Positions 4,086-37,163 of a stretch of 64,000 bases of DNA are shown here, in pieces. The position numbers were made by a program, and so were the translations under genes. The stretch is from an uncultured Acidobacteriota bacterium (GTDB lineage: Bacteria > Acidobacteriota > Vicinamibacteria > Vicinamibacterales > UBA2999). The notes beneath the pieces are model-generated. The model was not told the DNA's origin, ran no database searches, and was given only the letters and a program-made list of their open reading frames with translations. Location of the stretch: assembly GCA_963731785.1 (NCBI GenBank), contig CAVSWX010000021.1:1893-65892 (forward strand), in the 5' to 3' direction. Within the stretch, counting starts at the first letter, position 1, and each line of letters opens with the position of its first letter.

Positions 4086-6764
4086 ATGGTTTCGAGATTT
4101 GCCCGATGCGGGCACGTCGTAGTGGTCGTGTGTCTCCTCGCCGCGGCGATGCTGGCGGCCGCGGCGCCGGCGGCCGCGCAGGCCGCCCGGCCGGGCACGC
4201 TGCAGATCACCGTCGTGGATCCGAGCGGCGCCGTCATTGCCAACGCCACCGTCACCGTGACGGGGGCCGAAGCGGCGACCAAGGCGCAGACACCCGCGCC
4301 GGTGCAGACCAACGCGCAGGGCGTGGCGAGCGTGGCCGGCCTGCCGCCGGGACGCTACACGGTGAGCGCCGAGTTCCCCGGCTTCGAGACGCGCGCGCTG
4401 CCCGAGGTGCGGGTGCGGGCCGGCGACAACAAGCAGGTGATGATGCTGCCGATCGCCGGCGTGCAGGATGCGGTGACCGTCGAGCGCGACAAGCAGGAGT
4501 CGGCGGCGGATCGCCAGTCCACGTTCGGCACGGTGCTGACCCGCGAGCAGCTCGAGGCGCTCTCCGACGATCCCGACACGCTCCGGCAGCAGCTGCAGGA
4601 CATGGCCGGACCTGGCGCCGTGATCAAGGTGGACAGCTTCGAGGGAGCCGCGCTGCCGCCGAAGGCCATGATCCGTTCGATCCGCATCTCGCGCGATCAG
4701 TTCGCGGCCGAGAACCACTCGGCCGGCGGCATCTCGATCGAGATCATCACCCAGCCAGGCCTCGGCCCGATCCGCTACAACACCGCCTTCCGGTTCCGCG
4801 GCGGGTCGCTGAGCGGGCGCAGCCCGTTCACGCCCGTCCGGGGGCCCGAGCAGCTGAAGAACTACATGATGGGTCTCAACGGCGCCCTGGTGCAGAACAA
4901 GGCCTCGTTCAACCTCAACGTGAACGGCGTCGACTCCTACGAGACGCCGAACATCAACGCGGCGCGGGCGCTCGGCGACGGCACCCGCTCCGAGGCGCTG
5001 CGCCTGAGCACGCCGCGCGACAACGTCAACGTCAACGCCAACGTCGACTACGCGCTGACGCTCGATCAGACGCTGCGCTTCGGCTACAACGGCAACCGGA
5101 ATTCGGTGGAGAACCTCGGCATCGGCGAGTACGACTACGAGGAGCGCGCGTATTCGACCGAGAACTCGAACCACAACCTGCGCGTGCAGCACATGGGCCC
5201 GCTGGGCCGCCGCATGTTCCTGCGGACCCGGCTGCAGATGTTCTGGAACGATTCCGAATCCCGTTCGGCCTTCGAGGCGCAGACCATCCGCGTGCTCGAC
5301 GCGTTCACGCGCGGCGGCGCGCAGCGCGCCGGCGGGCAGCACAACCGCGGCCTGAACGTCGGCAGCGACCTCGATTACGTGCGCGGCATCCACTCGTTCC
5401 GCACCGGCCTGCAGTTCGACACGCTGCGCGTCCGCGCCGACGACACGACGAACTACCTCGGGACCTACACGTTCGAGAGCCAGCGGGCGTTCGAGGAGGG
5501 CCGGCCGCGCAGCTACACACAGCGCGTCGGCGATCCGGAGATCCGCTACAGCAACGTCCAGGCGGCGTGGTACGGGCAGGACGACATGCGGATCCGGCGC
5601 AACCTGACGGTCAGCGCGGGCGTGCGCTACGAAGCGCAAACCCACGTGACCGACTACAACAGCTTCATGCCGCGCGTCGGCGTCACCTGGGCGCCGTTCA
5701 AGAGCGGCGCCACCACGCTGCGATCGAGCTGGGGCATCTTCCACGACTGGCTGCCCGCCAATACCTACGAGCAGACGCTGCGCGTGGACGGCTTCAACCA
5801 GCGCGAGGTGGATCTGCTCAACCCGTCGTTTCCCGACGTGGGCGACGTCGGGACCGCGCCGCCGGCGAACCGCTACCTCCTCGAGGGCGGCCTGCGTCTG
5901 CCGCACACCAACCGCGTGAGCGGCGGCATCGATCAGCGGCTCGCCCGGCAGGTCCAGACCAGCGTCACCTACGCCTACCAGCGCGGCGTGTCGATCTTCC
6001 GCGGTCTCAATCTGAATGCGCCGGTGGACGGCGTGCGGCCCGATCCCGGCTTCGGCAACATCGTCGAAGTGGTGTCCGACGCGGCGTCGCGTCTGCACGA
6101 GGTACAGGTCTCGATGACCGTGAATCCAGGCGCGCTGATCCCGGCGTTCAACGCCCCGCTCATCAACTGGAAGCGCGCGACGGTGTTCACGAACTACACC
6201 TGGGCGAACCTTGAAAACAACTCGGATGGGGCGTTCGCCATCCCGGCGACCGGCAGCCTGGCGCAGGAATGGGGGACGGCGACGCAGGAAGTCCCGCACC
6301 GCTTCAACTTCACGTTCAACAGCCAGTTCGTCAGGAACTTCCTGATGCAGTGGAACTTCAACGTGAACTCCGGGCTGCCGTACACGATCCGCACCGGCTT
6401 CGACGGCAACGGCGACCTGGTCTACAACGATCGCCCGGACGGCGTGGCCCGCAACACGCAGCGGGCGCCGACGCAGTGGACGATCAACCCCGCCGCCGCC
6501 TACACCTTCCTGTTCGGGCGCCAGCAGACGCGGCTGCCGCCGGGGATCAGCGTGATTGCCGGCGGGGCGGGCGCGCCCACGGTGCAGACCTTCGACCAGA
6601 ACGCGGCGCGGTTCCGGCTGCAGTTCGTCGTGCAGATCCAGAACCTCACCAACCGCTCCAACTACGTCGGCTACAGCGGCGTGATCACGTCACCCTTCTT
6701 CGGCCAGGCCACGGCCGTCACCGGGACCCGCAAGGTGGACGTGGGAGTACAACTGAGTTTCTAA
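4086..6764 (+). CDS. TonB-dependent receptor with N-terminal carboxypeptidase-regulatory-like domain
   Basis: Intact 892-aa ORF. It has a signal peptide and then GTLQITVVDPSGAVIANATVTVTG...LPPGRYTVSAEFPGFE (CarboxypepD_reg). A long beta-barrel region with alternating pattern ends ...GTRKVDVGVQLSF* (aromatic C-terminus). Confidence 0.85.
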   Translation: MVSRFARCGHVVVVVCLLAAAMLAAAAPAAAQAARPGTLQITVVDPSGAVIANATVTVTGAEAATKAQTPAPVQTNAQGVASVAGLPPGRYTVSAEFPGFETRALPEVRVRAGDNKQVMMLPIAGVQDAVTVERDKQESAADRQSTFGTVLTREQLEALSDDPDTLRQQLQDMAGPGAVIKVDSFEGAALPPKAMIRSIRISRDQFAAENHSAGGISIEIITQPGLGPIRYNTAFRFRGGSLSGRSPFTPVRGPEQLKNYMMGLNGALVQNKASFNLNVNGVDSYETPNINAARALGDGTRSEALRLSTPRDNVNVNANVDYALTLDQTLRFGYNGNRNSVENLGIGEYDYEERAYSTENSNHNLRVQHMGPLGRRMFLRTRLQMFWNDSESRSAFEAQTIRVLDAFTRGGAQRAGGQHNRGLNVGSDLDYVRGIHSFRTGLQFDTLRVRADDTTNYLGTYTFESQRAFEEGRPRSYTQRVGDPEIRYSNVQAAWYGQDDMRIRRNLTVSAGVRYEAQTHVTDYNSFMPRVGVTWAPFKSGATTLRSSWGIFHDWLPANTYEQTLRVDGFNQREVDLLNPSFPDVGDVGTAPPANRYLLEGGLRLPHTNRVSGGIDQRLARQVQTSVTYAYQRGVSIFRGLNLNAPVDGVRPDPGFGNIVEVVSDAASRLHEVQVSMTVNPGALIPAFNAPLINWKRATVFTNYTWANLENNSDGAFAIPATGSLAQEWGTATQEVPHRFNFTFNSQFVRNFLMQWNFNVNSGLPYTIRTGFDGNGDLVYNDRPDGVARNTQRAPTQWTINPAAAYTFLFGRQQTRLPPGISVIAGGAGAPTVQTFDQNAARFRLQFVVQIQNLTNRSNYVGYSGVITSPFFGQATAVTGTRKVDVGVQLSF

Positions 6765-22398: not shown

Positions 22399-25300
22399 AT
22401 GAACCTGTCGTCGATCTTCATCGCGCGGCCGGTCACGACCACCCTGCTGATGCTGGGCATCCTGGTGTTCGGCACGCTCGCCTACCAGGAGCTGCCCGTC
22501 GCCGATCTGCCGAGCGTGGACTTCCCGACCATCCGCGTGCAGGCGTCGCTGCCCGGAGCCAGCCCGGAAACGATGGCGTCGTCGGTGGCGCTGCCGCTCG
22601 AGAAGCAGTTCACCTCGATTCCGGGTCTGACCAGCATCAACTCCAGCAGCACGCAGGGCGGCACCGACATCACGTTGCAGTTCGACTTGAGCCGCAACAT
22701 CGACGCCGCGGCGCAGGACGTGCAGTCGATGATCGGGCGGGCCTCGCGCCAGCTGCCGCCGCAGATGCCGGCGCCGCCCTCGTTCCAGAAGGTCAACCCG
22801 GGCGATCAGTCGATCTTCTTCCTCATCCTGCGATCGTCGACGCTGCCGCTCTCGACGCTCGACGAAATCGCCCAGTCGGTCGTGGCCCAGCGGATCTCGA
22901 TGGTGAGCGGCGTCGCGCAGGTCAACGTGTTCGGCTCGCAGAAGTACGCGGTGCGGATCGACGTCGATCCGCGGGAGCTCGCCGCGCGCTCGATCGGCAT
23001 CGACGAAGTGGCGTCGTCGGTGCAGAACGCCAACTCGAACCTGCCGACCGGGACCATCTACGGCGAGAAGTCCTTCGTCGTCCAGACCAACGGCCAGTTG
23101 ATGCGGGCGGCGGCCTACGGCCCGACGATCATCTCCTACCGCGGCGGCAACCCGGTGCGGCTCGACGAGGTGGCGCACGTCTTCGACGGCGTCGAGAACG
23201 ACAAGACGGCCGCCTGGTCGAACGGCGAGCGCTGCATCTATCTGCCGGTGCAGAAGCAGCCGGGCGTCAACGTCGTCCAGGTGGTCGATGCCATCAAGGC
23301 GCTCCTGCCCTCGATCGAAGCGCAGTTGCCCGCGTCGGTCAGCCTCGACGTGCGCAGCGACCGCTCGCTGACGATCAAGGAGTCGGTGCACGACGTCAAG
23401 CTGACGCTGCTCGTGACCGTCGGCCTCGTCGTCCTCGTCATCTTCCTGTTCCTTCGCAACCTGTCGGCGACGCTCATCCCCAGCCTGGCCCTGCCCGGAG
23501 CGCTGGTGGGCACGTTCTCGGTGATGTACCTGCTCGGCTACAGCCTCGACAACCTGTCGCTGATGGCGCTCACGCTCTCGGTCGGCTTCGTCGTGGACGA
23601 CGCCATCGTGATGCTCGAGAACATCGTGCGCCACATGGAGATGGGCAAGCCGCCGATGCAGGCGGCCTACGACGGCTCGCGGGAGATTGCCTTCACGATT
23701 CTGTCGATGACGGTGTCGCTCGTCGCCGTCTTCATTCCGGTGCTGTTCCTCGGCGGCATCGTCGGCCGGCTGCTGCACGAGTTCGCCATCACGATCACGG
23801 CGGCGATTCTCGTCTCGGGCTTCGTGTCGATCAGCCTCACGCCGATGATGTGCAGCCGGTTCCTGAAGCCGCCGCACGAGCACGGCCGGCTCTACAACGC
23901 GTTCGAGGCGGTGTTCGATGCCTGGCGCCGGCTCTACGACATCACGCTGCGCGGCACGCTGCGCTACCGCGCGGTGACGATGGTGGTGTCGATCGTCCTG
24001 CTCGGCGCGACCGTCTACCTGTTTGCCATCGTCCCGAAGGGCTTCCTGCCGAGCGAGGATCAGGGCCGCTTCAACGTCAACACCGAGGGCGCGCAGGGCA
24101 TCAGCTTCGAGGAGATGGTTCGCCATCACAATCAGGTGGCCGACATCGTCATGGCCGACGAGACCGTCCTCGGCGTCAGTTCGAACGTCGGGTCCGATCG
24201 GCAACAACGCGACCGGCGGTTCGAATCAGGGCCGCATGTTCGTCGAGCTGAAGCCGCGCGATCAGCGCACCGAGAGCGTCGACGAGGTCATCCAGCGGCT
24301 GCGGCCCCGCCTGTCGGACATTCCGGGCCTCCGGGTCTTCATGCTCAACCAGCCGCCGATCAATCTCGGTGGCGGCGGCGGCGGGCAGCGAGCGCTGTAT
24401 CAGTTCACGTTGCAGGATACCGACACCGACGAGCTCTACAAGTGGGCGCCGGTGCTCGAGGCCAAGGTCCGGCAGATGCCCGGCTTCGAGGACGTCAACA
24501 GCGACCTGCTGTTGAACAATCCGCAGGTGCGGGTGGACATGGACCGCGACAAGCTGTCCACGTTGGGCTTGACGGCGACGCAGGTCGAGAACGCGCTCTA
24601 CAACGCCTACGGCACCCGTCAGGTCTCCCAGATCTACGCGCCGAACAATCAGTACCAGGTCATCTTGCGGGTCGATCCGAAGTTCCAGACCGACCCGGCG
24701 GCGATGTCGCTGCTCTACGTGCGGTCGAACAGCGGGCGGCTGATCCCGCTCGAATCGGTGGCCCGGCTCAGGACCGACGTGGGGCCGACCCAGGTCAATC
24801 ACTTCGGTCAGTTGCCGTCGGTGACGATCGGCTTCAATCTGAGGCCGGGGTTCGCGCTCGGTGACGCCGTCTCGCAGATTCAGATCGCGGCTGCCGAGAC
24901 GCTCCCGTCCACGGTGACGGTCGCGTTCCAGGGCGCGGCCCAGGCGTTCCAGGATTCGTTCCGCGGCCTCGGGCTCGTGCTGCTGATGGCCATCGTCGTC
25001 ATCTACATCGTGCTGGGCGTGCTCTACGAGAGCTTCACGCACCCGCTGACGATTCTCTCGGGCCTGCCCGCGGCGGGCCTCGGCGCGCTGCTCACGCTGA
25101 TGCTGTTCGGCGCCGAGCTCAACCTCTACGCGTTCGTCGGCGTGATCATGCTCGTGGGCCTGGTGAAGAAGAACGGCATCATGATGGTGGACTTCGCCGT
25201 CGAGGCCCAGAAGCTCGGGCAAGACGCCGACCGAGGCGATCCACGAGGCCTGCCTCGTGCGCTTCCGGCCGATCATGATGACCACGATGGCCGCGCTCGT

Positions 25301-25558
25301 GGGCACGCTGCCGATCGCGTTGGGTCTGGGCGCCGGGGCCGAGGCGCGGCGTCCGCTCGGCCTGGCGGTCGTGGGCGGCCTGCTCGTGTCGCAGCTCCTG
25401 ACGCTCTACATCACGCCGGTCTACTACAGCTACATCGAGGGCCTGCGCCTCCGCCTGGCGCGCAAGCGCGCTCCGGCGCCGGTCCGACGTCGAAGCGCAC
25501 CCGGCCCCGTCCCCGGCCGAAGGCATGGCCCGCAGCGCGCAGCTCGTCGAGCCGGTAG
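22399..25558 (+). CDS. efflux RND transporter permease (AcrB/MdtB-like, HAE1) (at least 2-3 apparent frameshifts; 3' end approximate)
   Basis: [25 protein letters not shown]...(ORF 22399..24864), then ...[17 protein letters not shown]...[32 protein letters not shown] (ORF 24023..25558), then [25 protein letters not shown]...[13 protein letters not shown] (ORF 25257..). Confidence 0.88.
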
Positions 25559-25624
25559 GCGTAGGGCGGCGTCGGCGGCCGTCAGGGCCCGGCGGAGGAC
25601 CTGGCCGCGGGTCTCCAGACCCGC
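25552..25624. repeat. degenerate 9-bp-periodic array plus GC hairpin between convergent genes
   Basis: GCCGGTAGG CGTAGGGCG GCGTCGGCG GCCGTCAGG GCCCGGCGG, followed by the hairpin GCGGGTCT-CC-AGACCCGC (25607-25624). It has the same architecture as 45472-45533. Confidence 0.55.
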
Positions 25625-25631
25625 CTCGTCA

Positions 25632-26183
25632 CTACCGCGGCTCGGACGACGGCGGGACGATGTCCTTCATCCGCATGTAGCTCACCACGTTGCCGTAGTG
25701 CTCGGTGTTGTGGCCGTAGTTGAGCACCAGCAGGCCCATGCGCAGCGACTGCGTCCGCCGTCCGTTCTCCTGCGTGATGGTCAGCACTTCCTGCCCCGAC
25801 GCATCCGTCAGCGCCGCATAGACGCCGTCGCAGTAGGCGAGCGCGTCGTTGACGGCCTTCACCAGCGCCGCCTTGCTGGCGATCTTCTCGAAGTCGGTTC
25901 CTGCGCCCGGGTTCTTCTCGCCCTTGGCCTGCGAGCACCACAGGTAGTTGTAGTTGGCCAGATGGCCAATCAACTGGCCGAAGGTGCGGACCTCGGTCTG
26001 CGTCCCGGGCCGCATGCCATAGAGCTCCTCGGGCATCTTCTCGGCCGCGCGAGCGATGTAGTTGCGGTTGTTGGTGTAGGCGCCGCGCAGCCACGACGAC
26101 ATGGTCGGCGCCGGCGGGGTCTGCGCCAACGCGGCGGTGGCGAACGACAGAGCGAGGACGACGAGGGCCAGCGCCGTTTTCAT
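25632..26183 (-). CDS. DinB family protein (secreted)
   Basis: Last 183 codons of ORF 25632..26282, from ATG 26181-26183: [21 protein letters not shown]...[17 protein letters not shown]...[19 protein letters not shown] (DinB His triad context). Confidence 0.75.
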
Positions 26184-26278
26184 GGAGCGGAATGTACACC
26201 ACCCCGCGTATCCACCGACGCTCCAGCTCGGCGGCCTGGAACAACCTCGAGGTCGACGCGTAGCCACGCCCGCAGGCG

Positions 26279-27768
26279 TCACTTCAAGTCGAACGTCTTC
26301 TCCGCGGACTCATCCTTGATCGCCGTGCGGAGCACGGCGCGGGTCGTGGTCGTCGGCAGGTCGAACACGACCGTGCCCGTGGTCGTCGTCATCGGCTCCA
26401 TGGTCTCGTTCGGGAACTGGAACGGCGCGTACTGTTCGCCGCCGGCCGAGACCCGCATCGTGATCACGCCGGTGTGCAAGCCGTAACGTCCGCGGTTCTC
26501 CAAGCGAATCGTCAGGGTGAGCCGCAGGACGTTGGCGAACCGGCGGCTCGACGCCCGAAGCAGCGTCACGCCGACGTCGGTGGTGTCCAGCAGCGGCATC
26601 GGGTCGCGGACCACCGCCGCCGTGATGGCCTGAGCGCCGGAATCGGCAATCTCCGCCTGCTCGTCCACCGGAGGCCGGCCGGTCGGCGACAGATCCAGCG
26701 GAATCTCGGCCGTCTCCTGTTGCCGGCCGACGAGGCGCAACGTGCCGGCGCGCATCTGCGGCCGGAGCCGGAACGTGACGATGCCGTACCGCAGCGAATT
26801 GCCTGGCACCGACGTGTTGAGGCCGCTGGTCGGGCTGAGCATGTCGCCGCCGACCGCGAGCCGGAACGAGTCGTCCCAGAACCCGACGTCGTAGCGGCCG
26901 AAATTCATCAGCCGCATGCGCAGGCGCAGCTCCGGCGTGTCGCCGCGCATGACCACGTTGCCCGACACGACGGCGTAGATCGCGTCGCCGAACGCGGCCT
27001 CGGCGATCCGGGGGATGTCGATGGTGTATGGCGATCCGCCTGCCGCGGAGATCGGCGGCCCGGCCGGCACGGAGGAGGCCGCGGCGCGTGGACGCCGGGG
27101 CGCGCGTCGCCGCGTCGCCGCCGCCGGCGGGCGTCGAGGCGCCACCGCCTGGTTCCGCGGGCGGAGCCCCCGGGTCGCCGGCCTCGCCGCCCGACCGCCG
27201 GTTTCCGTTGAACAGCAGCAGCCCCACGATCACGATGGCCAGACGCCGCCGCCACCCACAGCCGCGCCGCAGAGATCGGTGCGTCGGCGCGCGTCGGGTC
27301 CACCGCGCCGGTCGCCGACTCGATCACCCCGACCAGCCGATCGACGTCGGCGTCCCAGGTCTCGTCGCGAACGGTCACCGCGTGCCGCCGGGCCAGCGGA
27401 CGGATGTTCTCCGGCAGCTCCGCCGAGACCGGCATCGACGCGCCTTCGACCAGCACCGGCACCACCAGCACGTTCGGGCGGGTGAGCGCCGCGGCGATCT
27501 CGAGCCGCACGAAGTCGTACGGTTCGTCGAGCCGGCGGCTGCCGGTCATGTCGCGGGCGCCGACCCACTCGCGCCCGATGACGGCCAGCATGACGCGGCA
27601 GTCGTTGAGGCGCGACTCGATCGCCTGCACGAAGTCCTGTCCGGGACGCAGGGTATCGACGTCGCGAAACACCCGTGACGCGCCGAGCCGCCGTTCGAGC
27701 GACTCGCGCAGCCGGCCCGCGTAGCCCGCCGCGTCCTCGCGGCGGTAGCTGATGAAAGTTCCGGCCAT
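26279..27768 (-). CDS. TIR domain protein with a single TM helix and two C-terminal beta-sandwich-like repeats (two apparent frameshifts in the linker)
   Basis: ATG 27766-27768 behind a GAGGA RBS: [46 protein letters not shown]...[12 protein letters not shown]...[11 protein letters not shown] (ORF 26908..27834). Then [15 protein letters not shown] (ORF 26310..27233 frame, nt ~27210-27254). Then two repeats in ORF 26279..27145 (...[34 protein letters not shown]... / ...[35 protein letters not shown]...). Confidence 0.75.
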
Positions 27769-27864
27769 CCGTCCTCTGGGGGAGGAGCGTCCGATTATAA
27801 CGGCCGCTCGAGCCGGTCCGTCTTCATCTTGCACACGTTCGACGGGTGGCCGTATGGTGGAAGG

Positions 27865-28889
27865 ATGCGCGACCCGATCATCCAGACGTCCCCGCTCGGC
27901 TCACGATGGCAGACGTCCGATCCGTTCCTCTTCTGCGTTCATCACATCGATCACTATCCGCGGGGCAACGACCGGCTGGGGCCCGACGCACCGCTGGCGG
28001 GCCACGACGTCGGGCAGGACTTCGAGGGCCACGGACGGCTGGCGGATGTATCACGGCGACGTGGTGCCGGGCTTCCCGCAGCACCCGCACCGCGGTTTCG
28101 AGACCGTGACCATCGTTCGCACCGGCTACATCGATCACTCCGACTCGCTCGGCGCCACGGCACGCTTCGGGATGGGCGACGTGCAGTGGCTCACGGCCGG
28201 GGCCGGCGTGGTGCACTCGGAGATGTTCCCGCTCCTCCACGCGGACCGGCCGAACGATCTCGAGCTGTTTCAGATCTGGCTGAACCTGCCCGGCCGCGAC
28301 AAGCTGGTGGCGCCGTATTTCACGATGTTCTGGGACCAGGACATCCCACGGGCCGTCCATCGCGACGCCAACGGCCGCACGGTGACGATCACGGTGATCG
28401 CCGGCGCGCTCGACGGGCTGCAGCCGCTGGCGCCGCCGCCCAATTCGTGGGCGGCGAGTCCCGAAGCGGACGTGGCCATCTGGTCGATCGCGCTCGAGCC
28501 CGGCGCGTCGTGGGTGGTGCCGCCGGCCGCGTGATGCCTCGACCATCCGGACGCTGCATCTGTTCCGCGGCACGGCGCTCAAAGTGGGAGAGCGGATCGT
28601 GCCGGGCCCGTCCGCCATCCAGGTGCACGCCGATCAGGCGGTGCCCCTCGAGGCCGTCGACGGCGCCGCCGAAGTGCTGCTGCTGCAAGGGAGGCCGATC
28701 GGCGAGCCGGTCGCGCAGTACGGCCCGTTCGTGATGAACACCCGCGCCGAGCTGGAGCAGGCGTTCCAGGACTACCGGCGCACGCAGTTCGGCGGCTGGC
28801 CGTTTCCCGAGAACGCGCCTGTCCACCCGCGCGACCGCGGCCGCTTCGCCCGTCACGCCGACGGCAGGGTCGAGGAGGCGGGCGCCTGA
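27865..28889 (+). CDS. pirin family protein (2-3 apparent frameshifts)
   Basis: [31 protein letters not shown] (ORF 27829..) joins [63 protein letters not shown] (ORF 27752..28534). It ends with ...[44 protein letters not shown] (ORF 28584..28889). Confidence 0.85.
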
Positions 28890-29344
28890 CGGTGCGCCTC
28901 GAAGAACCCGCGCCAGAAGAAGCCGTTCTGGAACGCGACCAGATACACCATCAGTTTCGGCGTGGCCAGAGCCCCCGAGGCGTTGAGGTCGGCGACGACC
29001 CCCAGCAGCGGGATGAACACGATCGGCGACGCGAAGATCGGCATGAAGAACGCCGAGGGGTCGAACCGGTAATCGCGCGTGCGGGCCTGATCGAAGCCGT
29101 CCTGGGCCGCCATCCCCAGCAGCATGGCGCCGTAGCAGAAGACGATCGCCAGCGTCTCGTGCAGCGATCCCTTGGCCTCGACCTGCTCCGGGAACGCATA
29201 GCCGAGCACGAGCGCTGCAAGCGCCGTGAGCGCGGCGGCCTGGATCACCCGGCGCGGACGCTTCACCACCAGGTTCACATACCAGACGCACACCAGTAAT
29301 CCCGCCACCGAGGCGGCGAGTACCCACGACAGGACCCACGACAT
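28853..29344 (-). CDS. small polytopic membrane protein (about 4 TM), last gene of the caspase operon
   Basis: Last 163 codons of ORF 28853..29815, from ATG 29342-29344 behind a GGAGGAGG RBS and 20 nt after the caspase gene stop (TAA 29365-29367): MSWVLSWVLAASVAGLLVCVWYV...IVFCYGAMLLGMAA...FFMPIFASPIVFIPLLGVV...LMVYLVAFQNGFFW. No family recognised. Confidence 0.55.
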   Translation of the reverse strand: MSWVLSWVLAASVAGLLVCVWYVNLVVKRPRRVIQAAALTALAALVLGYAFPEQVEAKGSLHETLAIVFCYGAMLLGMAAQDGFDQARTRDYRFDPSAFFMPIFASPIVFIPLLGVVADLNASGALATPKLMVYLVAFQNGFFWRGFFEAHRQAPASSTLPSA

Positions 29345-29364
29345 CGCTGCCTCCTCGCCATCCG

Positions 29365-30787
29365 TTATTGCACGAAGACGAACTCGCCCCGGCTCGCCCC
29401 GCCCGGCCCGAGGTCCAGGAACATCGGCGAGAGCTCGCGGTTGGCCCGGCGCGCCTCGCGCTCGACCGCCGGTCGCAGCCACACGTAGAGCTCGCGTGCG
29501 GTCACGATCCGGTCCTTGTAGAGGTCGGCTTCGCGGCGAAGCCCGGTGAGCAGCTCCTCGGTGAAGAGGCTCCCGTTCCATCGCGTGCCGCCGAACGACT
29601 GCTGGCCCGCGGTGCCGGCCATCAGCATGTAGCGCGCCGGTCCGCGCGCCATGCGGTTGAGCGCTTCGGCATCGACCTTGGGGTTCGGCTGGCGAATCGT
29701 GTTGGACTTCATCTCCATGCCGTCCACCGCGAGGCCGCTGAAGCACGAGTCGAGCACCACCATCAGGTGCTCCACGCTCAGGCCTTGAGCCACCGCACCA
29801 GGTCGAGCATCGCAATCGAGTTGCGGTGGCGCCCGTCGTCGATCTCGACGGCCAGCGGCAGGAACCCGCGTGTGGCCGTGCCGCTGCCGTCGGTGATGCC
29901 GTGACCGGAGTAGTAGAACAGGAACCGGTCGTTCGCCTGCATCTTGCCTTGCAGATAGCGCTGCGGATGGCGGAACGCGTCGAGCGTCACCTGGTCGTCG
30001 ACGAGCGTCACCACCTCGTCGAAGCCTTGCGCGTCGAGGTACTCCTTCATCTTGAGGACGTCCTGCGCCGGCGAGGCGAGCGGCGCCATGTGGCGGTACT
30101 TCCCGATGCCCACGACGAGGGCGTAGCTCTTGTTGAACGCGGGCGGTGTCGGCGACAGGTACGTCGTCCACAGCTCCCACAGGCGCGCAGTAAAGCTCGG
30201 GCGATCCGGCGCCTTGGCCTCGACGCCGACCTTCGAGGTGGCGAGCATCTGCGGCTGGAGGCCGTCCACCTCGAACAGGAGCACGCCGTTGAAACCCGAG
30301 GCGCTGAAGCCCGGCGGGCGCAGGAAGTACACGAGCCCGTGGCGTTCGGCGCCCGGAGCGAGACGCCCGCTCGCCAGCTGCTTCCCGGCCAGCGCCGATT
30401 CGAGCGCGCCGGGATGAAACGCCGACGACTGGCGGCCGATGAACCGCAACACGCTTGGCATCCGCTTCATCTTGCGGATCTCGCTGGCGACGGCGGCTGC
30501 CGCCAGCGGCCGCAGCGTGGTGTCGCCGCCGAGTCCCAGCCGCACCGCCTCGTAGTCGAGCGCCACGCGCTTCGGTGGAAGTGTTGCGAACGGTCACCGC
30601 CACCGGCAGCGCTCGCGAGCCGCCGAGCAGCGGGTCGACGGCGGACGGATCGAGGTACTCCAGACGGACCGCCAGCGCACCGCTGCGCTGGCCGGTCAGC
30701 TGGAACTCCATCTGCCGCGCCGTCTGCGCCAGGCGTCGCCCGCGAGCAGCAGGGTCGAGCCACGCCGCGATCGGTGCGCGCGACCAT
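29365..30787 (-). CDS. caspase family (peptidase C14) protein with N-terminal beta-sandwich-like domain (at least 2 apparent frameshifts; N-terminus unresolved)
   Basis: ORF 29778..30566: ...KSYALVVGIGKYRHMAPL...DRFLFYYSGHGITDG (His codon 29901-29903). It joins the frame of ORF 29365..31983: GLSVEHLMVVLDSCFSGLAV (Cys codon 29743-29745) ...GEFVFVQ*. The N-terminal part is MEFQLTGQRSGALAVRLEYLDPSAV...ALPVAVTVRNTSTE / VALDYEAVRLGLGGDTTLRP. Candidate ATG at 30785-30787, 13 nt after the upstream stop. Confidence 0.8.
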
Positions 30788-30800
30788 GATGCGGGCCGCG

Positions 30801-31968
30801 TCAGAAGCCGAAGTGGCCCTGGAAGAACACCGAATGCGCGTCGAGGCCGCGAGCCCTCGACACGTTTGTAGCCGACGTCCACCGGGGTGTGCCCGCCAAC
30901 GAGATACGACACGCTGGCGATGACGAGCCACGGCGCCGGCCGGTCTTCGGCTGCCGGCGAGCCGAGCGGGACCGTGTGCAGGAATTTGCCGTTCAGCGAC
31001 GTGCGCGAGGTCAGCGCGTAGCCGCCGACCACGCCGTAGGCGAGGTCCCAGGCCACCCCGCGCTCGTTGACCGCGTCGGCGAGCATCCGCATTTCGTCGG
31101 CGATGAGGCCGGTGGGCACCAGGCTCTTCGACGCCTGCAGCAGTCCGGCGCCGGCAATACGGACCTTGTCGAAGTCCTTGTGCGCCGACGACCAGACACC
31201 GCCGCCGAGATCGAACGAGCCGAAATCGAGCGTGTCGCCGTGCGCGTAGAGCGCACCGTAGCGAGCGTTGACGCCGACCCGTACGGGCAGCGGCGCTTCG
31301 ATCTCGATCGATGGATGGTAATCGGCGCCGACGGAGAAGGAACGCGTGCTGGTCTGCCGCAGCGTCCCGAGGTTCTCGTGCTGCTGGGTGACGCGGCCCT
31401 GGATGCCCATGTGGATCCCTTCGAGCCGGTAGAGGCCTTGCCAGGCGTGGCCGGTCTGGCCCGGCGTGTCGATCTGCTCGAACTCGAGCAGCCCGGCGGC
31501 GGTTCCGCGAACCATCGCGTTGCCGCGGCGCACGGCGGTGATGTCGAGCGCGGTCGTCAGCAGGAACTGCTGCGAGTAGGTCTGGGCCGCGTCGCGGCCG
31601 GTGACGCTCTCGGAGATGCTCGAGGGGAAGAGCAGCGCGAGGATCGCGCCGGCGTTGTCGTTCACCCAGCGGTTGAAGGCCGCGCGCGAGGGGTCGAGGT
31701 CGGCCGGGAGACTCGAGGGACTGGCCGTTGCGCGAGATGCGGAAAGCGGAAATCTGGTCAGCCGCGCCGAGCGACGCGCCCACGCCGTCCAGATTGAGCA
31801 CGGTGGCCTCGATGGTGCCGCCGTAGATCTGGCCGTTGACGATCTGGACCGGCGCATCCTCGACGCCGTTCCACAGGGCCAGGACCGCGTCGCCGATGGA
31901 ATTCTGCGCGGAGAGCCGGGGCCGCGCCGATGAGAAGTGCTCCGACGAGGGCCGACCGCGAACTTCAT
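30801..31968 (-). CDS. outer-membrane beta-barrel protein (several apparent frameshifts), first gene of the caspase operon
   Basis: ATG 31966-31968 (MKF...). A shifted frame gives the signal-like ALVGALLIGAAPALRAE. The long middle part lies in the frame of ORF 29365..31983 (...GLYRLEGIHMGIQGRV...SFSVGADYHPSIEIEA...VRVGVNARYGALYAHG...WDLAYGVVGGYALTS...). A third frame ends ...LDAHSVFFQGHFGF* with stop TCA 30801-30803, the aromatic C-terminus typical of OMPs. Confidence 0.55.
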
Positions 31969-32093
31969 GACGTTGTCCTCCACGCGGCGGGAACAGCCGC
32001 TCTATGAAGGACAACGGGAGAGGTGCCCGGACCGCACAGCAGTGCGGTCCGGGGCAGAGGGGCTTGAAACGGGCGCCCTGGGGCCCGTGGAAT

Positions 32094-32910
32094 CTACGAC
32101 TTCTTCGTGGCGCTCCAGCTCGCGCCGGCGCTGGTCGTGCCCTTCATCGAGTTGCCGTTCACCTTGCCGGTGTAGGTGGCGCCGTTGGCCGCGAAGGAGA
32201 TGTCCTCACCCGTCAGGCGGCCGTTGCTGATCGGCGCCGAGCCCATGCGTGCCGCCGAGCACCTGGAACTCCTGCGTGAGGGTGAGCGTGTTGGTGCCGA
32301 GCTGCCAGGTGCCCGCGGCCTTGGCCGGCACGATCCACAGGTAGGCCGTGCACCAGCTGGTGCAGTCGCCGGTCACCGACGGCGGTCTCGTCGGCCTGCC
32401 AGGTGTCCATCGTGAACGAGTTCGACACGATGCGCGTGCCCGGCTTCATGTTCAGGATGGTCGGCCGCAGCCGCAGGTTGATCGACGGCAGCAGGAACAT
32501 CGTGACGACCTGCGCCTTCGAGAAGTCGGTCTCGAAGAGGTCGGCCTTGACGAAGGTCGCCTTGTCGCGACGCCGGCCGCGGTCGGCGTTGCGCTTCGAC
32601 AGCTCCACCATGTCGGGGTTGTATTCGATGCCCTGCGCCTTCAGGCCGCGCTTGGCGGCGGTGATGACCGTGCGGCCGTCGCCCGAGCCGAGGTCGATCA
32701 GGTAATCCTGCGGCGTGACCTTGGCCAGGTCGAGCATCTTCTCGACCAGCGCCTGCGGCGTGGGCACCCACACCACGTCCTTGCCCGGCTGTCCGACGCT
32801 CGGCTCGAACGGCTTGGTGCCGGGCGCGGCCTGGGCCAGGGCCAGCGACGAAACCACGCACGAGAGAGCAGCCGTCAGACGGCAACGCGAACAGAACGGG
32901 ACACGAGCAT
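32094..32910 (-). CDS. secreted class I SAM-dependent methyltransferase with a Cys-containing C-terminal beta domain (apparent frameshifts)
   Basis: ORF 32213..32956: signal LTAALSCVVSSLALAQA, then VVWVPTPQALVEKMLDLAKVTPQDYLIDLGSGDGRTVITAAKRGLKAQGIEYNPDMV (motif I) ...VVTMFLLPSINLRLRP...GTRIVSNSF. My own translation of the next frame gives TGDCTSWCTAYLWIVPAKAAGTWQLG...ISNGRLTGEDISFAANGATYTGKVNGNSMKGTTSAGASWSATKKS*, with stop at 32094-32096. Confidence 0.65.
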
Positions 32911-33145
32911 CACGGTCGTCTCCAGGATGAAAGCGAAATGGCCGCCGGCCGCACACACGCGGTCCGGTCCGGCTCGAAGCGGAAATACGATTACTCGCGC
33001 GGGCACCGTTTCACCAAATGTTTCTTGCGGCGCATAAGCGGCGAATCGCCGCAAACAGCTGAGCTCGTGCGACTTCCGCTTGATTCGGCGCCAGTTCTGC
33101 AGTTCGATAACGCGCCATGCAGAGGTCGATCTCCGGGACGCCCGC

Positions 33146-36021
33146 ATGAGCATGCAGGCACCGGCGACGCCGGTCACGTCCGAACGAGGTCCACGCCCGC
33201 GAGCGCAGCCATCACCTCGAGAAGTCGCCTGACGAGCCGCTGGTCGGGCTCGCGCTCTCGGGCGGCGGCATCCGCAGCGCCATGTTTCGGGCTCGGCGTG
33301 CTGCAGGCGCTGCATAAGCTGGAGCTCTTCCGAGCACCTCGACTACGTCTCCACCGTGTCGGGCGGCGGCTATATCGGCGGCTGGCTCCAGGCCGCCGTT
33401 GGCCAACGGGCGGCTGGCCGCGCCATCGAGCTCGAACGGCGAGGAGCCGCGCGAGATCCGCTTCCTTCGCGCCTACAGCAACTACCTCACGCCGAAGCTG
33501 GGGCTGTTCAGCGGCGACACCTGGGCGGCGGTCGGCAACAGCCTGCGCAACCTGATTCTCAACTTCACGATTCTGAGCCTCTCGCTGCTCGCGCCGCTCT
33601 ACCTGCCGTGGCTGGCTGCGGCCGTGTTCTGGGCAGCTCGTGCCCGACCCCGGCCGACGTGCCGCTGGCTGGTCGGCGGCCGCGGGGCTGCTGTTCGCGC
33701 TGGTCGTGGCGGCGAGCATCGCGAACATGGCGCGGCCGCTGCGCGCGGCGGCCGGCACCACGTCGGGCGCCTCGCACGGCGACCGCGCACGGGTGTATGC
33801 CACGGTGATCGTCCCGGCGCTCGTGGCGACCTGGCTCGTCAGCACCGTGATGTGGGCGTGGGCCCGCGACCGGCTGACTTCCGAGCGGCGCGGACCGGGC
33901 TGGACGCCGCGCTGGCGGTGCGCTGGGCTACGCCGCCGTGTGGACGGCCGGTCTCGTCGCCGGCTTCAGGTGGCGGCGATCGGGCGCGGCCTCTCGCAGA
34001 CGCGAGCACTGCGTGGTACGTGCGCGTCCATCCGGCGTCGGTCTGGTGCTGGTGGTCAGCGGCGCCGTGGCCGGGTGGCTCGGCACGTTCCTCATGGGGC
34101 TGGCGACGCACGCGCTGGCGTTCGGCCGCGAGGCCGGGGCGCAGTCGTGGCTGGCCGGGCTGCTGGCGTTTCCGATCGTGCCTCGTGCCTGATGCTGGCG
34201 GTGTCGGCACACATCGGCTCTGGCCGGCGATGCCATGTCGGACGGGACGCGCGAGTGGTGGGGACGGGTCGGCGGCGTGCAGCTGCTGATCTCGCTCGTC
34301 CTGATCGTCGTCGGCGCTGCTGGCCCTGCGTCGGCCCGCACATCTTCGATCTGCATGCGCCAGCATGGCGGCCTGGCTCGATCATGCACGAGATCTCGGT
34401 CGAAGACGGCGCTCGAGTGCGGCGTGGGCCGTGCTCACCGGCGACCGGCGTGCTGGCGGGCCGCTCGCAGCAGACGGGGACCGGGCGGCGGCAACCGCCT
34501 GCTCGAACTGGCGGGCCGGGTCGGCGCCGGTGGTGTTCGTGTTCGGCTACCTGCTCATCCTCGCGACGCTTCATGCACCGCGCCGTCCCGCAGTGTCGCC
34601 GATCGCGTCCTGGCGGCGACGGCATTCCGCGACCTTCTCGCTGTGCGAGGTCGAAGCGCACCTGCAGGCGCGGCCGCCAGCGGCCGGCCGCTGGGCCGAC
34701 GTGCTCGCGGCCGGATAGGCGCCGCGGCGGCGCCGCTGCCGATGGGACGCCGGGATGCCGGCGTGCAGCGCCGTGTGCACGCGGCGCCGCCGGCGGCGCA
34801 TCGGCGGGCTGCTGTTGATGCTGCTCGAGCTCGGGCGTGCTGGCCTGGCTGATGTCGTGGCAGGTCAACCTGAACGAGTTCTCGCTCCACACGTTCTATC
34901 GCAACCGCCTGGTGCGCTGCTTCCTCGGCGCCTCGCGCACGCGCGACGCCGCATCCGTTCACCGGGTTCGACGACAAGGACGACGTGCCCCTGGCGGAGC
35001 TGGCCACCCGACGCGCCCGACGGCCGCATCCGGCCGTATCCGATCTTCAACGCCGCCATCAACCTGGTGGCGGGCAAGAACCTCGCGTGGCAGGAGCGCA
35101 AGGCGGCATCGTTCGTGTTCACGCCGGAGTACTGCGGGTTCGAATACCGCGACGACGACGATCCGCCCGCCGAGCGGAAGGCGGCGGCGACGCGCGCCGC
35201 GGAGGACCGCGGCGGTGCAGCAGAAGGCGGACGACAGCGGCGTGGTCACGCGCCGGCCCGCGACGCCGGCGTGAAGCGCCTCAGCGCCTACGCACGTACG
35301 TCGCGAGCACGCCGAGCGATCCGCCGCTCGCTCACGATGGGGCTGGCCATCGCCACCTCGGGCGCCGCCGCCTCGCCCAACATGGGCTACCACTGCTCGC
35401 CGACGCTGGCGTTCCTGATGACGGTGTTCAACGTCCGTCTGGGCTGGTGGCTGCGCAATCCGCGCTTCCCGAGCCGTGTGGACCGACGCGAAGCACCCGC
35501 CTGTCGCTGCGCGAGCTGCTCTACGAGCTGCTCGGCATGACGACCGACGACAAGAAGTGGGTGTATCTCTCGGACGGCGGCCACTTCGAGAACCTCGGCG
35601 TCTACGAGCTGGTGCGGCGCCGCTGCCGGCTGATCATCGCCTGCGATGCCGGACAGGACGGCGACGTCACCTTCGAGGATCTCGGCAACGCCATCGAGCG
35701 GTGCCGCGCCGACTTCGGCGTGAACATCGAGATCGATCTGGGCAACCTGCGCGCCCGGCGCCGATGCCGCTCGCGAATGGCACTGCGCGATCGGCACCAT
35801 CCGCTACGACCGCCTGCCGCCGCGTGAAGGAGGGCGACCCCGCTCGAGGTGCCGGGGACGCTGCTCTACATCAAGACGCTCGCTCACCGGCGACGAGCCG
35901 GCCGACGTCCTCCGCTACGCCGCCGAGCACCCGGCCTTTCCCCACGAGTCCACGCAGCGACCAGTTCTTCGACGAGTCGCAGTTCGAGAGCTACCGCGCG
36001 CTGGGCTTCCACGCCGTCTGA
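33146..36021 (+). CDS. patatin-like phospholipase with a large polytopic membrane insertion between the Ser and Asp motifs (many apparent frameshifts)
   Basis: Joined fragments: LVGLALSGGGIRSAMF (oxyanion GGGxR, 33261-33275), DYVSTVSGGGYIGGW (nucleophile Ser codon 33359-33361), REIRFLRAYSNYLTPKLGLFSGDTW. About 8 hydrophobic segments follow across 33540-34860. Then NLNEFSLHTFYRNRLVRCFLGAS, YPIFNAAINLVAGKNLAWQERKAASFVFTP, LAIATSGAAASPNMGYH, WVYLSDGGHFENLGVYELVRRRCRLIIACDAGQD (Asp codon 35573-35575), and ...FPHEST.DQFFDESQFESYRALGFHAV, with TGA at 36019-36021. Confidence 0.75.
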
Positions 36022-37163
36022 CGAGGCGTTCAGCAGCGCCTTCGCGCGCCGAGGAGTGCCGCCGCGCTCGCCGACGTCGAGATCTTCACGCTGCTGCGGC
36101 AGCGCTGGGGCAAGCCGGCGCCGGCGCCGCCCGACGCGCTGCGGAAGTACTCCGGCGGCGCTCGAGCGCATCTGGACCACCGTCCGCACCACGGAGAGCC
36201 TCACGTTCCTCGACAGCCAGATGTTCCCGGAGATGCCGGCGCTCATGGGCGTGCCGCACGGCCGCATGCACCGGAGCAGCCGGGACGGCCGCGCCGGTAC
36301 CCGACGTCAACTACTGGCTGCCGCCATCGGACGAGGAGCGCCGCGAGGGCTTCTACGTCTGCGTCCAGATGCTGCAGCTGATGGAGGACGTGTTCCTCGA
36401 CTTCGACCTCGACGAGCACTACGACCACATCGACAACCGCGGCTGGATGAACCTGTTCCAGCACTGGGCGTGGTCGGGCATGCTGTGCGCGACCTGGGCG
36501 ATGACCGGCTCCACGTTCGACCCGCGGTTCCAGCGGTTCTGCATGGACGCGGCTCGATCTGCGGCCCGGGCGTCCCTTCGGTGGCCGACATGCAGGCGGC
36601 CATCACGTTGCCCGACCCCGATCGAGTGGCGGCAGTGGAGCCTGGCCGGCGAACGCGGCGCAGCACGGACGCTGCTCGCCGAGTGGCAGAGCCGCGACGG
36701 TCTCAATTTCTGGGAAGCCGAGCTCGTGGACGAAGTACATGCGCGCCACCCGGCACCCGGTGCAGCGGCTGTTTCCGATTTACGTCACGGTCGAGAGCCC
36801 GCGCCGGTCCGACGGCAATCCCGCTGCGCTTCAACGTCGGCTACATCATCGGCGACGTCGTGGTGGCGCCGGGCGTGGCTCCGCGCGTTCGTCCTGCACT
36901 ACATGCGCATCCAGAACCACCTGCGGAAGATGGGGCTGGCCCGCGACGCGCTCATGTCGCTGCGGCGGACGCTCGGCGTCGAGATCGACGTCGGCGATCC
37001 GTTGTTCGACCCTGCGCGTCGCCGACGGCACGGCCTCGGACGAAGCGCTGCCGTCGGCCGACGCGGCTCGTGCGCCTGCGCGCCATCGTCCGTTCGCTCC
37101 CGCGTATGTGAGCGGCGCGCGCCGCCTGACCCCGCCGACGGCTCGGGTACAATGACGCGCTGA
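36022..37163 (+). CDS. unassigned coding region: either a C-terminal extension of the patatin protein or a separate gene (frameshifted)
   Basis: Protein-like strings are spread over three frames: LADVEIFTLLRQRWGKPAPAPPDALRKY; ALERIWTTVRTTESLTFLDSQMFPEMPALMG; EGFYVCVQMLQLMEDVFLDFDLDEHYDHIDNRGWMNLFQHWAWSGMLCATWAMTGSTFDPRFQRFCMD; LAEWQSRDGLNFWEAELVDEVH; RFNVGYIIGDVVVAPG; FVLHYMRIQNHLRKMGLARDALMSLRRTLGVEIDV. No family recognised. Confidence 0.35.

Follow-up and report, generated by a model that had tools for sequence, protein, structure and literature searches.

Here we describe a cassette of three adjacent genes, g1, g2 and g3, on contig CAVSWX010000021.1 of assembly GCA_963731785.1, which comes from an uncultured Acidobacteriota bacterium (GTDB lineage Vicinamibacteria; Vicinamibacterales; UBA2999). 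The window is the whole stretch of DNA that was analysed, 64,000 nt long (contig positions 1,893 to 65,892, forward strand) with a G+C content of approximately 70%, and coordinates are window positions unless another locus is named. All three genes lie on the minus strand. Gene g1 (31968..30801) encodes a predicted exported outer-membrane protein of 387 aa once four single-base insertions are corrected, g2 (30787..29365) a predicted exported caspase-like protease of 473 aa once three insertions and two deletions are corrected, and g3 (29344..28853) a predicted inner-membrane protein of 163 aa, the frame of which is intact in the window. The genes are separated by 13 nt (30800-30788) and 20 nt (29364-29345), and no further copy of g1, g2 or g3 was found in the window. 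An earlier note, made by a model from the DNA letters, had proposed three co-directional minus-strand genes with these gaps; the corrected models agree and the presence of the cassette is confirmed.

A GGAGGA Shine-Dalgarno sequence (31976..31981, minus strand) stands 7 nt (31975-31969) ahead of the g1 ATG (31968), and GAGGAGG (29350..29356, minus strand) precedes the g3 ATG (29344), where the earlier note had reported a strong ribosome-binding site for the same 163-aa frame (28853..29344). No clear ribosome-binding site was seen upstream of the g2 start; the 13-nt gap suggests that translation of g2 is coupled to that of g1. Three-frame translation placed the g1 stop at 30803-30801, directly after the outer-membrane-protein-like ending FFQGHFGF that had been pointed out before. 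The caspase motifs of g2 were located at 30125-30096 (YALVVGIGKY), 29915-29898 (YYSGHG) and 29754-29734 (LDSCFSG). On the minus strand the catalytic His codon occupies 29901..29903 and the catalytic Cys codon 29743..29745, equivalent to H295 and C348 of P0001, an intact 473-aa protein that is 99% identical to the stitched g2.

Between 28800 and 32100 of the minus strand, plausible protein sequence hops from frame to frame. The indels responsible were located by aligning the window to locus L001 (ENA ERZ25039531 contig_46142; 98% identical, 1.8% substitutions over aligned bases), which placed nine of them in g1 and g2 and fixed the gene models. Relative to L001, g1 contains 1-nt insertions at 31955, 31913, 31710 and 30861. 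In g2, one extra nucleotide is present at each of 30782, 30757 and 30567 and one is missing at each of 30730 and 29783; the spacer between g2 and g3 holds one additional base at 29359. Because of the deletion near 29783, the His and Cys codons of g2 sit in different frames in the window. The 872-aa open reading frame (ORF) 29365..31983, dismissed in the earlier note as an artefactual read-through fusion, does exist and follows the true coding frame only in parts. Read-through was correctly recognised, but the extent of the breakage was understated: there are four indels in g1 and five in g2, and the two catalytic residues are out of frame with each other.

We treat the frameshifts in g1 and g2 as assembly errors and not as gene decay because the neighbouring genes are equally broken, cleaner assemblies that are 97-99% identical are intact, and the indels are private to each assembly. 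Proteins of the clean Joint Genome Institute (JGI) locus L003 align to the window only as fragments, with at least nine segments for a patatin-like gene, three each for a methyltransferase and a pirin gene and two for a TIR gene. The Illumina-type JGI contig L091, 96.9% identical to window positions 24452-30620, reads caspase residues 57-473 in a single frame. Locus L001 has frame-breaking indels of its own at positions 5582 (g1) and 7687 (g3). A plot of G+C at third codon positions (GC3) changes phase all through 25-36 kb, and its periodicity tracks the corrected frames. That g1 and g2 are decaying pseudogenes with genuine frameshifts in this organism is scarcely credible and was rejected, for although the 2.6 kb of g1 and g2 hold nine indels, most of them not in homopolymers, all neighbouring genes are broken to the same degree, L001 and the window differ in their indels, GC3 periodicity follows the corrected frames, the caspase stays in one frame in L091, and P0001 is intact. 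We infer a noisy long-read assembly as the source.

Several assemblies of the ERZ250394xx-5xx series (L001, L005, L087) have split gene calls in the cassette and seem to share the noise of the window, which probably derives from the same kind of data. Contig_11304 of ENA ERZ25039469 (L006) is the same sequence as CAVUTO010000001.1 (L012), from the Vicinamibacterales metagenome-assembled genome (MAG) MFD00962.bin.2.231. Single-base indels are abundant and neighbouring genes are split over two to nine frames, so that ORF-based annotation of window positions 23363-37010 is unreliable.

The trio was found at all 16 distinct loci that were reached via protein matches and had enough flanking sequence, 14 with DNA and two as gene tables only; L006 and L012, being one contig, were counted once. 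The order g1-g2-g3 recurs around P0010, P0033, P0121, P0128, P0260, P0225, P0203 and P0170, and the trio is present in seven of seven genome loci carrying a full-length protease (L007-L013). Each g1 locus that was recovered with enough flank adjoins this protease. Order and spacing are kept down to approximately 40% identity, with gaps of 4-9 and 6-21 nt, while the flanking genes are unrelated between loci. The gene order described for the window is thus syntenic elsewhere, far in excess of chance. Hosts with named genomes were Vicinamibacterales, Terriglobia (the MAG locus L088) and unclassified or other Acidobacteriota only.

A scan of metagenomes with g3 as the seed yielded 80 loci, which were re-analysed with domain hidden Markov models (HMMs); a caspase neighbour was called by an HMM of the caspase domain only, and a locus counted as informative if it extended 1 kb or more on each side of g3, as 31 did. 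In 30 of these, a same-strand gene with a caspase domain adjoins g3. The caspase gene lies upstream of g3, as in the trio, in 21 informative loci, and g1 is present in 18 of the 20 metagenome loci of this type whose upstream sequence reaches 2 kb or more. It lies downstream of g3 in 9 of the 31 (loci L136-L169 among them), without g1 and without the DUF4352-like domain of g2. Pairs of this second kind are often translationally coupled, and some of their caspases carry C-terminal FGE-sulfatase domains. They also occur in Bryobacterales MAGs (L033, 5348-8415; L036, 5237-7836), where the caspases have a signal peptide and other C-terminal domains. Since the caspase gene adjoins g3 in 30 of 31 loci, nine of them without g1, g3 and an exported caspase form the core pair and g1 is a branch-specific addition.

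A further locus, the metagenome contig L092, aligns with the window from its nt 2045 onwards (window 29608-28637, 95.6% identical); its positions 1-2044 are unrelated, which leaves just the last 82 caspase codons. It is either a chimeric contig or a genuine rearrangement that truncates the cassette.

The protein encoded by g2 consists of a signal peptide, a beta-sandwich with a helical insert (approximately residues 23-212) and a C14 peptidase domain (approximately residues 216-473). The stitched sequence matches Pfam Peptidase_C14 (PF00656) with 64.1 bits against a gathering cut-off of 21.4 (E 1.9e-17), and the corrected ORF retains H295 and C348, in agreement with the intact His/Cys dyad claimed before. 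With 84.2 bits against a cut-off of 140, it is not a member of NCBIfam NF047832 (caspase_w_EACC1). Full-length homologues of about 470 aa, with 42-99% identity, number approximately 70; all come from metagenomes or MAGs and all carry PF00656. Across 40 aligned sequences H295 (SGHG), C348 (DSCFSG) and D242 are invariant, conservation of D346 in the D-x-C motif reaches 90% or more, an AxA|Q signal peptide is conserved, and the catalytic Cys is the only conserved cysteine. The p20-p10 loop lies at about residues 355-372.

Residue D242 aligns with Asp95 of the metacaspase TbMCA2, and D346 is likened to Asp211 by the D-x-C motif alone; in TbMC2, Asp95 and Asp211 accommodate basic P1 residues of the substrate (PMC6426788). 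With its His-Cys dyad intact, g2 looks catalytically competent, and because D242 aligns with Asp95, which suggests an acidic S1 pocket, it probably cleaves after Arg or Lys, as metacaspases and orthocaspases do. The AlphaFold2 (AF2) model of g2 has a predicted local distance difference test score (pLDDT) of 84.6 and a predicted template modelling score of 0.86, and shows the beta-sandwich with helical insert (residues 25-190) followed by a caspase fold, whose matches in the PDB are MALT1, metacaspases and Geobacter GSU0716.

The region of approximately 200 aa ahead of the caspase domain, previously described as non-catalytic, is accordingly a predicted beta-sandwich, and it appears to be DUF4352-like. 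Five of 13 members match DUF4352 (PF11611), the best at 1.9e-5, while the window-type sequence scores 13 bits against a cut-off of 25.9; a profile of the domain gave a marginal match among PDB sequences to the DUF4352-type lipoprotein YcdA (4r4g, E 0.037). Foldseek yielded no assignment for this domain because the caspase domain dominates the matches.

The protein encoded by g1 begins with a signal peptide (AxA|Q) and ends in a 12-stranded beta-barrel; in between come four short beta-strands, then four helices and lastly a disordered linker rich in Arg and Lys. Its N-region, the alpha/beta part of approximately 130 aa before barrel strand 1, carries the most conserved motif of the family, LFPxSLSExxTGRDAAQxxSQQFLLTTA, on the four helices. 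The family ends in FxQGxFG[FW], with F387, Q389 and G390 invariant. The linker, residues 153-169 in P0102, contains 19% Lys/Arg against 8% in the whole protein, and at least one Lys or Arg is present in 27 of 27 sequences. The AF2 model (pLDDT 78) shows this succession, from four short strands and four helices through a disordered linker to 12 long strands. Searched with Foldseek against the PDB, it matches FapF first (5o68, E 8e-7) and then PelBC, NalP, EspP, EstA, Hbp and KdgM/NanC; the top fold matches are all outer-membrane barrels. From the signal peptide, the C-terminal aromatic beta-signal and the model, g1 is predicted to be a Sec-exported 12-stranded outer-membrane barrel, which bears out the barrel that the earlier note had supposed.

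Searches of g1 against Pfam and NCBIfam found no family, and its family profile found nothing among PDB sequences. The family is small: one search yielded 43 clusters, and an exhaustive profile search picked out 137 representatives from 1.84 billion; the latter gave no bridge to any named family, and distant members had only sub-threshold matches to OMP_b-brl, DUF3575 and DUF2490.

Four helices of the protein encoded by g3 are clearly hydrophobic, and a fifth segment (KLMVYLVAFQNGFFW) is amphipathic and highly conserved. Residues C70, Y71, S106, P107, P112, N140 and W144, mostly within helices, are invariant. Pfam and NCBIfam contain no family for g3 and its family profile finds no relative among PDB sequences; DUF6962 (PF22285) gives weak matches in 9 of 25 homologues (best 9.8e-6) and none for g3 of the window. 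Modules like g3 are fused to an FGE-sulfatase domain in L138 (621-1529; 3.8e-28) and to an Lcl_C/DUF1566 domain in L143 (1129-1869; 5.5e-16), accessory domains that are also fused to exported caspases. These fusions hint that the C terminus of g3 faces the periplasm. The module of L138 additionally has a sub-threshold match to TssN (3e-5).

Upstream of the cassette, between the stop of the methyltransferase gene and the g1 ribosome-binding site, lies a minus-strand hairpin (32027..32052) with a perfect 11-bp stem, CCGGACCGCAC-tgct-GTGCGGTCCGG, a 4-nt loop and no T-tail; it may be a terminator, an operon boundary or a regulatory element. A scan for sigma-70 promoters found none, and terminator-like sites were no commoner than expected by chance. 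The neighbouring genes, all with frames split relative to L003, are the methyltransferase gene (32872-32103, minus strand), the pirin gene (27865-28880, plus strand), the TIR_2 gene (27768-26282, minus strand) and the patatin-like gene (33183-37010, plus strand). The pirin gene and g3 converge and share 37 nt at their 3' ends (28853-28889), as they do in L002 (7910-7946). The TIR_2 protein has an N-terminal TIR domain with weak PADLOC matches to ThsB and SAVED-TIR, a probable membrane helix and a beta-rich C-terminal part, for which a DUF4352-like assignment was not confirmed by Pfam. It and the patatin-like phospholipase of approximately 1280 aa flank the cassette in this lineage only. These surroundings could be a defence-island context that is not conserved with the cassette.

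We interpret the locus as a conserved three-gene envelope cassette of Acidobacteriota, shared by many soil members of the phylum, with a barrel (g1), a periplasmic protease (g2) and an inner-membrane partner (g3), in which g2 most likely switches g1, and we give this reading a probability of roughly 60%. The envelope-spanning protease module suggested by the earlier note is a hypothesis that fits both the strict co-occurrence of the genes and the places predicted for their products, namely the outer membrane (g1), the periplasm (g2) and the inner membrane (g3). In this mechanism g2 would fold in the periplasm and g3 would hold or regulate it at the inner membrane. In the trio version g1 would be the outer-membrane partner of g2, its disordered Arg/Lys-rich linker tying the N-region, as a plug, to barrel strand 1. 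The protease would then cut the basic linker or the plug region and so switch the channel, much as has been suggested for the FapD-FapF pair. The analysis shows the gene models, the catalytic residues and the co-occurrence, and predicts folds and locations; we infer which proteins touch, what g2 cuts, how the channel is gated and what purpose it serves in the cell.

The closest known parallel is the Fap system of Pseudomonas, where FapD, a Sec-exported periplasmic cysteine protease, is needed for secretion via the plugged 12-stranded FapF barrel and may cleave the FapF linker (PMC5557850). The cassette likewise encodes a plugged 12-stranded outer-membrane barrel together with a Sec-exported periplasmic cysteine protease, at the level of prediction; of the PDB folds, FapF matches g1 best, and in both barrels the disordered linker ahead of the barrel is the suspected cleavage site. 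The differences are considerable, since FapD is a C39 peptidase and g2 belongs to C14, g3 has no Fap counterpart, the host phylum is another, and the cassette lacks an amyloid subunit, a chaperone or other fap genes. We do not assign g1 to the FapF family: sequence homology (no Pfam or PDB sequence match), a predicted N-terminal coiled coil and a fap context are all missing, and the likeness is confined to fold and logic.

Several points weigh against the switching of g1 by g2. As pairs of g3 and caspase occur without g1, g1 cannot be the only substrate of the protease. A disordered linker rich in basic residues argues only weakly for a cleavage site, and no amyloid or other cargo genes are found in the cassette. 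The fold matches of g1 have TM-scores of 0.35-0.49, modest as is usual between barrels, and are not accompanied by sequence similarity to FapF or autotransporters. In addition, the signal peptides of g1 and g2 were called by eye from alignments, and the topology of g3 may comprise four or five helices.

An alternative that is possible but on the whole unlikely is dedicated secretion, in which g1 would translocate unfolded g2 to the surface or the medium in a two-partner or FapF-like manner. There g2 would act on external proteins, in nutrition, matrix processing or antagonism, and g3 would serve as an anchor, chaperone or immunity factor. The nearest folds of g1 are indeed polypeptide-translocating 12-stranded barrels (PMC5557850 for FapF), g1 and g2 appear translationally coupled and are always adjacent, the catalytic Cys is the sole conserved cysteine of g2, and other secreted peptidases (M36, M14) often lie near the loci of soil Acidobacteriota. 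Secretion would nevertheless require a two-domain protein of 450 aa to remain unfolded in the periplasm, with no chaperone gene present; class B caspases are exported yet do without g1, and the N-region of g1 is conserved as a plug or partner would be, unlike that of a free pore. Type Va autotransporters (NalP, EspP, EstA, Hbp) resemble g1 in having a 12-stranded barrel after an N-terminal helical segment (Foldseek E about 1e-6). They differ in that the N-region of g1 is short and well conserved, unlike a passenger, and the protease is encoded by a separate gene instead of acting by self-cleavage; Pfam Autotransporter (PF03797) did not match g1 at E <= 0.1.

Another clan CD cysteine peptidase that works with an outer-membrane barrel is PorU, with PorV, in type 9 secretion, and the chain 8gl6_F of a type 9 secretion complex is among the weaker fold matches of g1. 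The system is specific to Bacteroidota, PorU belongs to family C25 and PorV has 14 strands, as opposed to family C14 for g2 and 12 strands for g1.

We consider it doubtful that the cassette is a protease-gated outer-membrane pore, in which g3 would restrain g2 until a signal allowed g2 to cut the g1 linker, opening the outer membrane for regulated release or uptake, or for suicide of the cell.

Still less probable is an executioner of cell death or defence at the envelope, functionally analogous to pairs of caspase-like protease and gasdermin, in which phage attack or envelope damage would activate g2 to cleave g1, g3 or both and permeabilise the envelope. A plugged g1 barrel would be a ready-made pore, the cassette lies between the TIR_2 protein and the patatin-like phospholipase in this lineage, and g2 matches the PADLOC caspase model at 3e-16. 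That generic model was the only one matched when PADLOC was run on the cassette; no defence system was recognised, and g1 and g3 matched no model. The TIR and patatin neighbours occur only at the loci of close relatives, with metabolic or peptidase neighbours elsewhere, and the known bacterial caspase-like defence proteases are cytoplasmic, unlike the predicted location of g2. That a porin, a periplasmic protease and a membrane protein work independently as mere neighbours is most improbable: no direct sign of interaction was obtained, but order and spacing are conserved to about 40% identity across differing flanks, and the tiny g1 family (137 representatives among 1.84 billion) is found next to the protease at each locus with enough flank.

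With the switching of g1 by g2 kept as the preferred reading, we rate the cassette as belonging among bacterial C14 protease operons. Metacaspases, orthocaspases and paracaspases (TbMCA2, Yca1, MALT1, GSU0716 and the cyanobacterial orthocaspases) have in common with g2 the C14 fold and the His-Cys dyad, together with the D-x-C motif and, judged by alignment to TbMCA2, a putative acidic S1 Asp. They differ from it in that g2 has a Sec signal peptide, a DUF4352-like N-domain and fixed gene partners predicted in both membranes; characterised members are cytoplasmic, unlike the predicted periplasmic g2. Exported prokaryotic metacaspases have been noted in a bioinformatic survey (PMC3501461). The exported caspases with FGE-sulfatase or Lcl_C domains belong to the same subfamily as g2 (30-37% identity) and have a g3-like partner in Bryobacterales, but carry a C-terminal accessory domain, lack both the DUF4352-like N-domain and g1, and have the g3-like gene upstream. 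A literature search on DUF6962, on DUF4352 with caspase and on orthocaspases with signal peptides and the outer membrane found no description of the cassette.

For annotators of this contig, it is relevant that a noisy assembly gave rise to both the 872-aa ORF and the frameshifts. Homologues of caspases occur widely in bacteria and nearly none has a known role, the exported ones being known from domain surveys only (PMC3501461). The cassette is a compact three-gene unit in which such a protease has fixed partners predicted in both membranes, and g3 represents a small family of membrane proteins that are nearly constant companions of the exported caspase homologues of Acidobacteriota. A concrete candidate substrate site is the basic linker of the g1 barrel, and the role of a periplasmic caspase can now be approached through simple co-expression and cleavage experiments. 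A protease-gated pore, if true, would be an envelope-spanning counterpart of caspase-gasdermin logic and would give the exported bacterial caspase homologues and the g3 family their first assigned function.

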